A DNA stretch of 6,929 nucleotides from IMG/VR virus record IMGVR_UViG_2751185958_000012. One strand, given 5' to 3'. This document shows, one piece after another, positions 2,795 through 4,050 of this stretch. The position numbers and the translations under genes were made by a program. The stretch's first letter is position 1; each line of letters opens with the position of its first letter. The notes beneath the pieces are model-generated. The model ran no database searches and was not told the DNA's origin. It saw only the letters and a list, made by a program, of their open reading frames with translations. Origin of the DNA: a virus (lineage: Duplodnaviria; Heunggongvirae; Uroviricota; Caudoviricetes).

Positions 2795-3446
2795 GTATTA
2801 TCCGGCGGTGTTTGAAGCAGAAGCTTTTAATTGCCCTCACTGCGGTGTATATGCCCGTCAGTTCTGGCGTAGTATGTATGGTAATTCGAATGTGCTTGCG
2901 GTCAAATCAACTGAGTTCCGAATGTCAACATGCTCTCATTGTGGTGAAGATGCCTATTGGTATCAGGGCAACATGTTGATCCCTGCGGCTGGCAATGTTG
3001 AACTCCCAAACCCAGACATGCCCGATGACTGCAAGTCAGACTATATGGAAGCTAGAAGCATCATTAATCTGTCTCCTAAAGGCGCAGCAGCACTCCTTCG
3101 TCTTTGCCTCCAAAAGCTAATGGTCCACTTAGGCGAACCGGGAAACAACATTAATGCTGACATTCGGTCACTCGTCCAGAAAGGACTACCTGTACGCATT
3201 CAGCAGGCAGCAGACATCTGTCGTATCGTTGGCAATCAGGCGGTCCATCCAGGAGAGATTAGCCTTGATGACGACCCACAGTTGGCACATGGTCTCTTTA
3301 AGCTGTTGAACATTATTGTCACTGAGCAGATTACCAGACCGAAAGAAATTGAGGCTATGTTCCAGAGTATGCCTGAAGGTCCACGCCAAGGTATTGAGAA
3401 TCAGGACAGACAGGCGAGGGAACAGCAGCAGGCTGCTAATGAATAA
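2787..3446 (+). CDS. Hypothetical protein, 219 aa: N-terminal four-Cys zinc ribbon plus C-terminal DUF4145-like helical domain
   Basis: Two CxxC pairs (CPHCG at 16-20, CSHCG at 49-53). C-terminal segment [22 protein letters not shown]...[16 protein letters not shown]...[13 protein letters not shown] fits the DUF4145 pattern as I recall it (conserved R-x2-GN-x-A-x-H). AAGGAG RBS at 2771-2776. ATG 2787 overlaps the integrase stop (ATGGCTGA), implying translational coupling. Domain call is from memory and needs an HMM search. Confidence 0.75.
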
Positions 3447-3465
3447 AACCCACACTATAGGGGGA
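3443..3465 (+). promoter_or_regulatory. T7-class (single-subunit phage RNAP) promoter-like sequence P1: ATAAAACCCACACTATA|GGGGGA, +1 at 3460
   Basis: The -7 to +3 core CACTATAGGG matches T7/T3/K11-type promoters. Positions -12 to -9 (ACCC) resemble the T3 specificity region. Overlaps the stop codon of the upstream CDS. Confidence 0.55.
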
Positions 3466-3471
3466 AGGGGG

Positions 3472-3494
3472 ACTAAACTATCACTATAGGGAGA
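3472..3494 (+). promoter_or_regulatory. T7-class promoter-like sequence P2: ACTAAACTATCACTATA|GGGAGA, +1 at 3489
   Basis: The 14-mer TCACTATAGGGAGA is identical to T7 consensus positions -8 to +6. The upstream specificity region (-12 to -9, ACTA) differs from T7 (CGAC). Lies 29 bp downstream of P1 on the same strand. Confidence 0.7.
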
Positions 3495-3845
3495 GACCCT
3501 AAGTCCCCCCGGCTTAATACAGCCACCGACCCACACATTCATTAAATCTCAGGCTTCCGGTAGCGGACCGATTGGAAACCATCCGCAATAAGCCTAGTGT
3601 TAAATCACCTTGGCCTGAGACCATTCCCTTTAACGTAGCAATCTCTCTCCTTTGACAGGCGGAGAACATCAGACCTCAGCGGAACTTCCGTCTATGAGAC
3701 CATCGGTGTGCGAGATTGTGAAGAACCAAGACATCATTGCTGAGGTCTGCCATCCATTGTGGACAGGCGGAAACTCAAAGAGGTTAGACCAGTAGTGGTG
3801 TCTGAGGTCGGACTTTGAGTCCTGACCAGCAGGCTGGAGGAGACC

Positions 3846-4028
3846 ATGAGTTTATCTTGTTATGGATTGTGTTATCACAATTCCAATAAGAAGAACTTTA
3901 AGTCCAGCCTCCACTCCCGCCAACCCGAAGTAAACTATGGTCGCTATGATGTGGTCTCCATGCTTCGGGTCTTACTGGAAGTACTGAACACTTTCGCGTC
4001 AAGTTCTCCGAAGTTCATTCCTGTTTGA
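3846..4028 (+). CDS. Hypothetical small protein, 60 aa
   Basis: Strong Shine-Dalgarno GGAGGAG (3836-3842) with a 3-nt spacer before ATG 3846. Sits about 360 nt downstream of the tandem phage-type promoters. No recognisable domains; could instead be part of a structured leader RNA. Confidence 0.4.
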   Translation: MSLSCYGLCYHNSNKKNFKSSLHSRQPEVNYGRYDVVSMLRVLLEVLNTFASSSPKFIPV

Positions 4029-4050
4029 CTAAACTATCACTATAGGGACC
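4028..4050 (+). promoter_or_regulatory. T7-class promoter-like sequence P3: ACTAAACTATCACTATA|GGGACC, +1 at 4045
   Basis: A 22-nt exact repeat of P2 (3471-3492 equals 4027-4048, GACTAAACTATCACTATAGGGA). Abuts the stop codon of ORF 3846-4028. Confidence 0.7.

Follow-up and report, generated by a model that had tools for sequence, protein, structure and literature searches.

The window (the whole stretch of 6,929 nt that was analysed) carries an island that is probably a phage parasite not described in the literature searched, and that would wake only on infection. In our judgement the element is rather likely to be an integrative satellite of virulent T7-like phages, about 6.4 kb long and switched on by the helper's own polymerase. 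The observations behind this reading are the identity of its promoters, its gene set, the fold of its capsid protein, a junction similarity in its relatives and a plan that is kept across genera while the promoter specificity changes.

The original prediction placed three sites with a common core in the window, and these were found at the coordinates given there (P1, P2 and P3; Table 1). The core CACTATAGGG occurs exactly three times (at 3453, 3482 and 4038), always on the + strand. Allowing up to one mismatch resulted in four sites, compared with 0.33 expected from shuffles. All three sites have the 23-nt architecture of the T7 class, with an A/T-rich stretch at -17 to -13, a specificity region at -12 to -8, CACTATA through -1 and a G-rich start at +1 to +3. 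They are all oriented rightwards into the gene array, as had been predicted. The exact 22-mer said to be common to P2 and P3 was located at 3471-3492 and 4027-4048, and P2 indeed equals the T7 consensus over -8 to +6 (TCACTATAGGGAGA). The T7 consensus itself had no site in the window at up to three mismatches, and T7-specific promoters were rejected on this ground.

The sites were matched to other phages. P2 is identical (23/23 nt) to the annotated phi10 (capsid-gene) promoter of coliphage EcoDS1, a Kayfunavirus (20819-20841), and P3 shares 22/22 nt with EcoDS1 16992-17013, which is the phi6.5 promoter. The 16-mer core of P1, AACCCACACTATAGGG (-12 to +4), has 11 exact copies in coliphage SRT7 (Foetvirus), all on the gene strand, and P1 agrees with the consensus of these 11 sites, CATTAACCCACACTATAGGGAGA, at 16/16 positions of the core. 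P1 had been described as T3-like. This holds for -12 to -9, where the sequence reads ACCC as in T3, but over all 16 positions of the core P1 equals the SRT7 consensus. We assign the three sites to the T7-class promoters; the predicted cognate polymerases are those of Kayfunavirus (EcoDS1/K1F group) for P2 and P3 and of Foetvirus (SRT7) type for P1. The expectation of a T7 relative with a different specificity is borne out by these identities. A tandem of P1 and P2 as a T7-style primary origin (phi1.1A/B) was also considered; dual helper specificity is the simpler reading, because wherever a lineage has paired promoters, the two are of different specificity.

A 36-nt query centred on P2 matched 8-10 places per Kayfunavirus genome. 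Among 5426 complete E. coli genomes it matched 254, at 1-2 places each, and never on their plasmids. The P2-type motif is therefore not a core-genome motif, a possibility that the original prediction had raised.

Table 1. Features of the window copy, with positions counted from the first letter of the window
Feature	Position	Strand	Basis or remark
tRNA-Gly(CCC) (glyU), integration target	979..1052	+	ARAGORN, Rfam
attL core, TCCCTTCGCCCGCTCCA	1036-1052		last 17 nt of tRNA-Gly(CCC)
Tyrosine integrase, 535 aa, intact	1187..2794	+	NCBIfam tyrosine recombinase matches on window protein
RAZR / PD-T7-4 (predicted), 219 aa, intact	2787..3446	+	zinc-finger and DUF4145 (HEPN) abortive-infection RNase
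P1, ATAAAACCCACACTATAGGGGGA	3443..3465	+	predicted T7-class promoter, Foetvirus (SRT7) specificity; predicted start G at 3460
P2, ACTAAACTATCACTATAGGGAGA	3472..3494	+	predicted T7-class promoter, Kayfunavirus specificity; predicted start G at 3489
Leader (~870 nt), no conserved ORF, contains P3	3495..4364	+	alignment of six copies
P3, ACTAAACTATCACTATAGGGACC	4028..4050	+	second predicted Kayfunavirus-type promoter; predicted start G at 4045
Rha/Ant-like regulator gene (variable slot of family)	4365..5336	+	split here by miniature IS629
Miniature IS629, 240 bp, 97% identity	4395-4634		target duplication AAC; inverted ends found
Conserved small protein, 63 aa here, 58-66 aa elsewhere	5338..5529	+	
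163-aa protein, small N-terminal domain then two long helices	5650..6141	+	directly upstream of capsid gene
HK97-fold major capsid protein gene (predicted), first 84 codons (329 aa intact)	6225..6479	+	truncated by IS3-family element
End of IS3-family insertion sequence, not part of element	6480..6929	-	NCBIfam transpos_IS3 4e-51, ORF 6510-6917

The complete element of about 6.4 kb lies at tRNA-Gly(CCC) and comprises integrase, RAZR, promoters, leader, regulator, the 58-66 aa protein, the 163-aa protein and capsid. In an intact E. coli copy (L001) the same 17-mer forms attR, 6.4 kb downstream (26358-26374), and the Rouxiella copy is flanked by repeats of about 108 nt. An Rfam scan of the window at a permissive threshold returned the tRNA only, and the GC content did not tell the island apart from its flanks or from phages. 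An integrase homologue of 92% identity matched Pfam Phage_integrase (3e-19) and PHROG 1. The integrase gene lies upstream of the phage promoters, which counts against a satellite; the RAZR gene, whose start overlaps the end of the integrase gene, is upstream of them as well. No RNA polymerase gene is present in the window, where the longest ORF has 535 aa, and this agrees with the earlier reading. The further suggestion that a distal part of the element might supply the polymerase did not hold up. RNA polymerase, DNA polymerase, portal, tail and terminase genes are all missing from the att-bounded intact copies of 6.4 kb. As in satellites generally, the element is integrative and has no genes for autonomous virion production and replication.

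Within the leader, a 60-aa ORF (3846-4028) is shortened in L001. The last ~85 nt form a conserved hairpin (4260-4343) just 5' of the ribosome-binding site of the first late gene, and this hairpin may be an RNase III-type processing site. The proposal is tentative, since only 1 of the 33 pairs found by RNAalifold is compensatory and the single-sequence z-score is -1.5. An intact 242-aa homologue of the regulator matched Pfam Phage_pRha (3.5e-18) and PHROG 10324 (1.6e-69); the conserved 58-66 aa protein matched no Pfam or PHROG family. Homology to intact copies ends at about 6479. The IS3-family insertion removes from the window the remainder of the capsid gene, a terminator-like hairpin and the packaging-junction mimic described below. 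The window copy retains integrase, RAZR and all three promoters, and the promoters are also all retained in a 92%-identical E. coli copy. Because its regulator and capsid genes are disrupted by insertion sequences, the window copy is probably no longer mobilisable.

We assign the 219-aa product as an orthologue of RAZR / PD-T7-4. PADLOC matched PD-T7-4 over essentially the full length (1-209 of 211, E 2.7e-102) and Pfam matched DUF4145. The translation contains the motifs CPHCG and CSHCG of the N-terminal zinc-finger domain and, in the C-terminal HEPN domain, R146 and H154, together with AGN68-70; these catalytic and linker residues are the ones named for RAZR (PMC13017515). [quoted passage not shown] PD-T7-4 was reported by Vassallo et al. 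often to overlap an integrase gene, with nothing further on context (PMC9519451). The main text of the RAZR paper does not mention integrase, mobile genetic, satellite or genomic context (PMC13017515). The published accounts treat RAZR / PD-T7-4 as a stand-alone defence gene, whereas here it sits inside an integrative element.

The product of the last gene is assigned, from the model of a homologue (pLDDT 83.7, pTM 0.78), as a major capsid protein of the HK97 fold, judged by spine helix, E-loop hairpin, and A and P domains. Foldseek resulted in 195 PDB and 178 viral matches at E<=1e-3. The best 50 PDB matches were phage capsids or encapsulins and the listed viral matches were mostly capsid or head proteins, in both cases all with probability 1.00. 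Distant homologues carry C-terminal Ig-like domains. The modelled fold may also be compatible with a role as encapsulin. The 163-aa protein, of a family widespread in Enterobacterales, was modelled with AF2 (pLDDT 69; helices 73-107 and 111-156), and the model had no significant or informative fold match. By position and helicity it is a candidate scaffolding protein.

Intact relatives were found in E. coli (122 complete genomes) and in ten or more further genera of enterobacteria; one intact E. coli copy is that of strain CFSAN064035 (NZ_CP031134, 2679391-2685800). The distribution is patchy, with 122 to 254 of 5426 E. coli genomes. We compared 15 loci from Escherichia, Citrobacter, Leclercia, Enterobacter, Buttiauxella, Rouxiella, Kluyvera, Shimwellia, Proteus and others. 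All 15 have the same core, made up of the small protein, the 163-aa protein and the capsid protein; the regulator gene is present in six, and RAZR is missing from five. At least two integration sites and two integrase types occur among the relatives, and the late modules are about 90% identical across genera. Where IMG/VR matches do include the element, they represent prophage regions predicted in isolate genomes. Other IMG/VR contigs (8-12 kb), which show P1-type or GW1-type motifs, have no element genes and were rejected. Logan contigs of 6.4-7.8 kb were rejected as excised circles, L053 and L054 including chromosomal genes. Contig L056 is not evidence of excision either, because its ends fall within the 108-nt att repeat, where an assembly would be expected to break.

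Promoters are kept at the same two positions in the 15 loci, the P3 position included, and P1 is conserved among the E. coli relatives. By specificity region the promoters form at least four classes, and each of these was matched to a phage group: ACTATCAC to EcoDS1-type Kayfunavirus, ACCCACAC to SRT7, ACCCTCAC to phages GW1, Enterobacter IJM and Shigella SFP20 (23-nt exact match) and AAGGAAGGTACAC to the phi10 promoter of Citrobacter phage CR8 (31-nt exact match). The classes often stand in tandem pairs with 26-33 nt spacing, and promoters for two or three different polymerases occur within single elements. Sigma-70-like promoters are depleted (1 found, 5.9 +/- 2.8 expected); together with the promoters of helper type, this makes the wiring unambiguous as far as the sequence goes. 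Of the four lineages folded, three had a hairpin with a U-run directly 3' of the capsid gene, and the Proteus copy had a hairpin that lacks the U-run.

This region 3' of the capsid gene, which is absent from the window, appears in relatives to mimic the concatemer junction of the helper. It was aligned to the whole EcoDS1 genome on both strands. Of the eight relatives with EcoDS1-type promoters, six had their best local alignment on the junction between the right unique end and the terminal repeat, with scores of 20-36 compared to a background of about 11 (z 5.8-11.6). The match is collinear over about 100 nt, and the block reads GACGATGAGTTTTG...TGAGACC..ATCT. The Proteus copy matched the CR8 junction (z 8.6). 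Counting against a satellite, the C. koseri and Leclercia relatives, which have EcoDS1-type promoters, showed no clear match to the EcoDS1 junction. In 2.3 Gb of phage DNA only three junction matches were obtained, all marginal (E 0.4) and all in Kayfunavirus-type phages; the one in CR44b is annotated as terminal repeat. T7 promoters double as replication origins, and T7 reportedly packages plasmids that carry a T7 origin and a concatemer junction, a result ascribed to Chung and Hinkle in 1990.

Transcription, excision, replication, packaging and transfer, including mobilisation, are predicted from these features. P1, P2 and P3 would head the late operon of the satellite. In the quiescent state the host polymerase would express only the integrase and RAZR, both encoded upstream of the promoters. 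Infection by a phage with a matching polymerase would lead to transcription of leader, regulator, small protein, scaffold-like protein and capsid protein. Transcription from T7-type promoters could then prime replication by the helper's replisome, and the junction mimic would direct the helper's terminase to package satellite DNA into particles using the helper's portal and tail. The original prediction had seen the wiring of a satellite or an infection-triggered module in the promoters, and it gains from the capsid gene, from the junction mimic in relatives and from promoters of other T7-like phages at the same positions in other genera.

An island for defence only, which we regard as unlikely, would use many of the same parts. 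The phage polymerase would switch on a decoy programme, and the element itself would not be packaged or transferred by phage. The foreign capsid and scaffold would poison the head assembly of the helper and the junction mimic would titrate its terminase, thereby complementing RAZR. The validated anti-T7 abortive-infection gene within the element fits such a role and, as interference with helpers is also known in satellites, the same parts would serve interference. All ten metagenome contigs with the junction block were the integrated form; no attP circle, no concatemer and thus no excised or packaged form was among them. Also in favour of this account and against the satellite, no excisionase, replicase or terminase subunit was recognisable with Pfam or PHROG. 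Neither the element DNA nor the capsid protein occurs in any phage-database record and, to our knowledge, 6.4 kb is far below the genome size of any tailed phage; both points weigh against the satellite as well. However, the integrase and att sites, the patchiness, the variety of sites and integrase types and the late modules, about 90% identical across genera, point to frequent horizontal transfer. A conserved full-length HK97 capsid protein and a collinear junction copy exceed what a decoy needs, and it is RAZR that is dispensed with in a third of the loci while the capsid module is universal. These findings argue for the satellite.

That the island is a temperate T7-like prophage which lost its RNA polymerase, replication and tail genes by decay is highly improbable. 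Several features would suit a remnant, namely the integrase beside the tRNA gene, the T7-type promoters, the common orientation of the genes, the sequence resembling a terminal repeat and the capsid gene, and the two IS elements in the window illustrate that decay does happen. Yet the same compact gene set of 6.4 kb, bounded by attL and attR, is present in several genera, and independent decay would not converge on it. Protein relatives were found neither in Autographiviridae nor in any phage record: a tblastn search with the capsid protein in 50,697 phage records gave 0 matches, and the listed relatives of the Rha-like protein all have <60% identity and belong to phages outside the T7 group. 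At the DNA level, an IS629 fragment was the only match of the island in the same number of phage records. Single elements have promoters for two or three polymerases, and we know of no T7-like phage that does. Recasting the region as a T7-like prophage, which the original prediction had kept in view, is not supported, with RNA polymerase and T7-type virion genes absent from the window and from the att-bounded intact copies. It is barely conceivable that the promoters are non-functional scars of recombination with infecting phages, or chance, for although they match phage DNA over short stretches (16-31 nt), they keep their positions while their specificity class differs from lineage to lineage, they are always oriented into the operon, they are full-length promoters and not random phage pieces, and the identities of 23/23 and 31/31 nt and the shuffles exclude chance.

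The satellite proposed here was compared with known systems. The cfPICIs of Enterobacterales are likewise integrative satellites with their own HK97-fold capsid that depend on a helper for the remaining virion. They are about twice the size, with a full head module (portal, protease, connectors, terminase subunits) and temperate helpers. In contrast, the element has only the capsid and a scaffold-like protein, presumed virulent T7-like podophage helpers and wiring to the helper's RNA polymerase. No portal, protease, head-tail connector or small terminase of a cfPICI head module was found, the other ORFs matching no such families. In P4 (helper P2) and PLE (helper ICP1) the late genes are also activated by the transcription programme of the helper; PLE parasitises a virulent phage, and both protect the host population. 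However, P4 and PLE respond to helper regulatory proteins that act on the host polymerase, neither is known to use promoters for a helper polymerase, and they remodel the helper's capsid protein, whereas the element supplies its own. Its cis elements, T7-class promoters (T7 replication origins) and, in relatives, a putative mimic of the concatemer junction, correspond to those of laboratory constructs for plasmid transduction by T7. Promoter/origin and junction are said, again from the work of Chung and Hinkle in 1990, to be enough for T7 to replicate and package foreign DNA. Those constructs are artificial, while this is a natural chromosomal element with integrase, capsid gene, defence gene and promoters for several phage genera. 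Among the minimal satellites of virulent or marine phages, PICMIs and VEIMEs (PMC9618062) resemble the element in a monomer of about 5-7 kb, in a very small gene set that includes an integrase and in helpers that may be virulent. VEIMEs enter full-size capsids of the helper as concatemers, and the word 'promoter' is absent from the main text of that paper (PMC9618062). By analogy, concatemer packaging is a possible format for the element as well.

A natural satellite exploiting T7-like phages is not described in the literature searched (full text). In textbooks T7-like phages stand for the 'autonomous' virulent phage, and phage therapy and biotechnology rely on them heavily. We see the odds as about even that the island is the founding example of an unrecognised family, widespread in Enterobacterales, of minimal satellites that encode a capsid and depend on virulent T7-like phages. 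In this family helper range would be set by interchangeable RNA polymerase-promoter cassettes, often with two or three specificities in tandem, the helper junction would be copied for packaging, and RAZR would eliminate T7-like competitors that are not helpers. If this is true, the helper's own orthogonal RNA polymerase would serve as induction switch, and this way of sensing would be new and very direct. Helper range could be read from the promoter sequence as from a barcode, so that satellite-helper pairs of EcoDS1-, GW1-, SRT7- and CR8-type would be predictable from sequence alone. RAZR would be placed in the context of a mobile element, which would explain its linkage to integrase, and PD-T7-4/RAZR would be cargo of a phage parasite. 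The promoter, junction and capsid would make up a natural minimal parts list for T7-based transducing particles. Therapeutic Kayfunavirus phages (K1F, LM33_P1, CLB_P1) may mobilise, or be blocked by, islands present in 2-5% of E. coli strains.

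The window holds an IS-disrupted copy of an element of about 6.4 kb integrated at tRNA-Gly(CCC) (glyU). The core CACTATAGGG was found exactly three times in the window, on the + strand only (at 3453, 3482 and 4038), and four sites had at most one mismatch to it, versus 0.33 expected from dinucleotide shuffles. The exact copies belong to the promoter-like sites P1, P2 and P3 of the original prediction, whose positions were reproduced (table), as was a perfect 22-mer common to P2 and P3 (repeat family D5). The T7 consensus promoter had no match in the window at three mismatches or fewer. 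Thus the sites are T7-class without T7 specificity, as had been proposed. The window also lacks an RNA polymerase gene, as claimed, since its longest ORF encodes 535 aa. The prediction had considered that the motif might be equally dense across the core genome. This was not observed, because a P2-type 36-nt query matched just 254 of 5426 complete E. coli genomes, at one or two places each, all chromosomal.

Features of the window and their coordinates
Feature	Position	Strand	Remark
Presumed IS1 end	1-96
actS/ygeR	121-900
tRNA-Gly(CCC)	979-1052
Tyrosine integrase	1187-2794
DUF4145 protein	2787-3446
P1 + P2	3443-3494
P1	3443-3465	+	23-nt T7-class frame
P2	3472-3494	+	23-nt T7-class frame
Leader	3495-4364		about 870 nt
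P3	4028-4050	+	23-nt T7-class frame, within leader
Rha/Ant-like gene	4365-5336		interrupted by miniature IS629
Miniature IS629	4395-4634		240 bp
63-aa ORF	5338-5529
163-aa ORF	5650-6141
Capsid gene start	6225-6479		84 codons, then cut
IS3-family element	6480-6929

Searching with 36 nt centred on P2 gave matches in 687 phage records. Among those listed, the ones with the best coverage were nearly all podophages of about 39-40 kb with enterobacterial hosts and 7-10 places per genome, including EcoDS1, CR44b, SH3-5, Dev2, SFPH2, LM33_P1, CLB_P1 and others. P2 was identical at 23 of 23 positions to the annotated promoter at 20819-20841 of EcoDS1, immediately 5' of the major capsid gene 10A, and P3 was identical over 22 nt to the phi6.5 promoter of this phage (16992-17013). 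The specificity region of P1 is unlike that of P2 and P3. Its core AACCCACACTATAGGG is present in 11 copies in coliphage SRT7 (Foetvirus, 39.9 kb), all on the gene strand with the consensus CATTAACCCACACTATAGGGAGA, and in 9 copies in Vibrio phage N4. Since P1 matches the SRT7 type and P2 the EcoDS1 type, the tandem P1-P2 pair combines two predicted polymerase specificities.

A scan with the capsid alignment, covering a single genome for each bacterial species, detected relatives in Citrobacter, Leclercia, Enterobacter, Buttiauxella, Kluyvera, Shimwellia and Proteus. Every related locus whose upstream region is included has T7-class promoters directed into the operon, at two common positions, one 3' of the integrase module and the other some 550 nt downstream of the first, with specificity regions that vary with lineage. 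Class ACTATCACTATAGG is that of EcoDS1-type Kayfunavirus and ACCCACACTATAGG the SRT7 type. Class A(A/T)ACCCTCACTATAGG is that of the Cronobacter GW1, Enterobacter IJM and Shigella SFP20 phages (23-nt exact match; 11 such sites in GW1), and AAGGAAGGTACACTATAGGGAGA that of the phi10 promoter of Citrobacter phage CR8 (31-nt exact match; 11 such sites in CR8). Tandem two-class pairs 26-33 nt apart occur in many elements, and three classes in the Kluyvera element. The phage promoters copied are typically strong capsid-gene promoters. Because of this, and because position stays while specificity turns over, the pattern is in our reading a signature of selection for recognition by the T7-like polymerases that the host meets.

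The Kluyvera intermedia copy (L073) carries five promoters of these three classes at 4642-5376, among them two that equal the CR8 phi9/phi10-type promoter at 23 of 23 positions. Its promoter block is duplicated (4642/4675 and 5343/5376). GW1 and EcoDS1 are both classed as Kayfunavirus and differ in their specificity regions (AACCCTCAC versus AACTATCAC); promoter class does not track phage genus boundaries as now drawn.

Of 5426 complete E. coli genomes, 122 have an intact version, 92% identical, with glyU on one side and the ETT2 secretion cluster on the other. Its last gene product has 329 aa, and the 17-nt 3' end of the tRNA is repeated 6.4 kb downstream, where it forms attR. The Rouxiella copy has an equal layout bounded by direct repeats of about 108 nt, and the Citrobacter koseri copy combines these late genes with another integrase at another chromosomal site. 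RNA polymerase, DNA polymerase, portal, tail and terminase genes were found in none of these three copies; the search for a polymerase gene beyond the window, which had been suggested earlier, thus yielded none in the intact E. coli and Rouxiella copies. The element has fewer sigma-70-like promoters than expected (1 versus 5.9 +/- 2.8).

In E. coli CFSAN064035 (L001, 20001-28300) the neighbouring ETT2 type III secretion cluster is degenerate. The Rouxiella repeats (L055, 5085-5195 and 11553-11660) consist of the tRNA 3' end plus about 90 nt. This att is unusually long next to that of E. coli, which has 17 nt, and its additional part is conserved in the window at 1053-1145. Two further loci (L061, L062) have a second island with an integrase in tandem at the same tRNA. 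The leader is well conserved among enterobacterial copies despite having no conserved ORF. Its last 85 nt or so (4260-4343) are predicted to form a conserved hairpin, with weak covariation, immediately 5' of the ribosome-binding site; candidate roles of this region are a replication origin, a processing site or an ncRNA. The 14-nt palindrome GCTAGCAAGCTAGC occurs 3' of P3 in the leader (4103-4116) and at the end of the 63-aa ORF (5503-5516); it could bind a protein or form a hairpin.

The 329-aa protein matched no Pfam or PHROG family. An exhaustive profile search gave 62 representative relatives, some of which have Ig-like domains at the C-terminus, as is typical of virion proteins. A confident AlphaFold model based on 35 of the 62 (pLDDT 83.7, pTM 0.78) gave 195 PDB and 178 viral Foldseek matches at E<=1e-3. 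Each of the best 50 of the 195 PDB matches was an HK97-fold capsid protein or an encapsulin; most of the viral matches listed were capsid or head proteins. By its model, the protein is a predicted major capsid protein of the HK97 fold. The 163-aa protein, encoded directly 5' of the capsid gene, was modelled as a small domain with two long helices (pLDDT 69) and gave no informative fold match; from gene position only, it is a candidate scaffold. Homologues are also present in Salmonella, Yersinia and Photorhabdus. Its closest structural neighbour was the uncharacterised Shigella flexneri SF216 (PDB 5eur; probability 0.98, E 0.07), which may be a solved relative of its N-terminal domain.

The DUF4145 protein gave a full-length match to PADLOC PD-T7-4 (E 2.7e-102) and has R146, H154 and the AGN68-70 linker, as in RAZR. 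Its gene, which adjoins the integrase, is an orthologue of this defence protein (RAZR/PD-T7-4). RAZR is a zinc-finger/HEPN RNase whose assembly around portal rings of T7, T3 and other phages leads to aborted infection (PMC13017515). The same paper does not discuss its genomic context, and a mobile-element setting with promoters and a capsid gene is unmentioned in the RAZR/PD-T7-4 papers PMC9519451 and PMC13017515.

The capsid protein was present in 15 of 15 loci, as were the small and the 163-aa proteins; 10 loci had RAZR and 6 the Rha-like gene. The promoter-capsid module is the core, with RAZR and the regulator as accessories. A decoy island serving defence only could be built from the same parts. 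We consider this rather unlikely, given the mobility signals and a capsid module that is universal where RAZR is optional. Descent from a temperate T7-like prophage by decay is very improbable, being contradicted by a compact att-bounded layout that recurs across many genera, by element proteins without phage relatives and by promoters for several polymerases in single elements. Chance matches or non-functional scars are practically excluded by the exact identities, the orientation and the conserved position.

Relatives also have a region of about 440 nt between capsid gene and attR, missing from the window, that resembles a phage concatemer junction. When it was aligned to both strands of the complete EcoDS1 genome, the best local match lay where the right unique end meets the terminal repeat in 6 of 8 relatives with EcoDS1-type promoters. 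Scores were 20-36 (z 5.8-11.6), the mean across the genome being about 11, and the observed score was reached by 0 of 1000 shuffles. Collinearity extends over about 100 nt, GACGATGAGTTTTG..AAAA.T.TGAGACC..ATCT then ..CCCCATAG.CC..CAGACCAAAGG, and the match covers the site at which the phage genome end (TCTCACAG...) is formed. The best match of the Proteus element to CR8 was also at the junction (z 8.6); the C. koseri and Leclercia relatives gave no clear EcoDS1-junction match. Against all 2.3 Gb of phage records only three matches were obtained (E 0.4), to Citrobacter phage CR44b (two records, annotated there as terminal repeat) and Escherichia phage ZH4. In 10.64898/2026.02.12.705533, the concatemer junction is described as a T7 RNAP class II pause or terminator site. 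A stable hairpin with a U-run directly follows the capsid stop codon in three of four folded lineages; the Proteus copy has the hairpin and lacks the U-run. In T7, terminator Tphi occupies this position, following gene 10.

In the window copy, the miniature IS629 (terminal inverted repeats, 3-bp target duplication AAC) splits the Rha-like gene and creates a chimeric ORF (4449-5336) whose N-terminus is the first 60 or so residues of IS629 OrfA. The IS3-family element that truncates the capsid gene is presumably IS911-like. Three IS elements within 7 kb, counting the presumed IS1 end, suggest a Shigella-like, IS-rich source genome. This copy has lost the regulator and most of the capsid gene to these insertions, and is probably a fossil keeping integrase, RAZR and promoters. 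A perfect 17-nt tandem duplication in the Rha-like gene (GCTCAAAACTGAGCAGT twice, 4745-4778) appears to be shared with L001, which encodes the same peptide there; a similar motif is present in the C. koseri leader.

We favour a satellite of T7-like phages. Exact helper-type promoters facing the late operon, an own capsid gene, att sites, an integrase and no polymerase gene were observed together, and a helper-type junction was seen in relatives. The late operon would be silent until an infecting phage makes a polymerase recognising P1 or P2/P3. Late transcription would then supply the regulator and the small protein along with the scaffold-like and capsid proteins. T7 promoters act as replication origins, and P1-P3 could double as origins for the helper replisome, while the junction mimic would let the helper terminase cut and package satellite DNA. 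We infer these two steps from T7 biology, where plasmids bearing a T7 origin and the concatemer junction are reported to be packaged (Chung and Hinkle 1990). As cargo, RAZR would kill cells infected by T7-like phages unfit as helpers. The phage promoters lie 3' of the integrase gene. Among the element genes, neither an excisionase nor a replication function was recognisable. Ten metagenome contigs with the junction block were all in the integrated state; small contigs resembling circles were rejected as excision products, as assembly breaks within the att repeat explain them. At 6.4 kb, the element is far under known capsid capacities.

The literature searched, with incomplete coverage, gave no description of a T7-type satellite or of this island. 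Like cfPICIs the element has its own capsid, but cfPICIs have a full head module and temperate helpers. PICMIs/VEIMEs are likewise minimal, with helpers that can be virulent, but have no capsid gene. P4 and PLE share helper-activated late genes, but act through host RNAP. Laboratory T7 transducing plasmids follow the same cis logic, but are artificial. Judged from sequence, we rate the element as a kind of phage satellite with a new induction principle, in which the proposed signal would be the polymerase of the helper.
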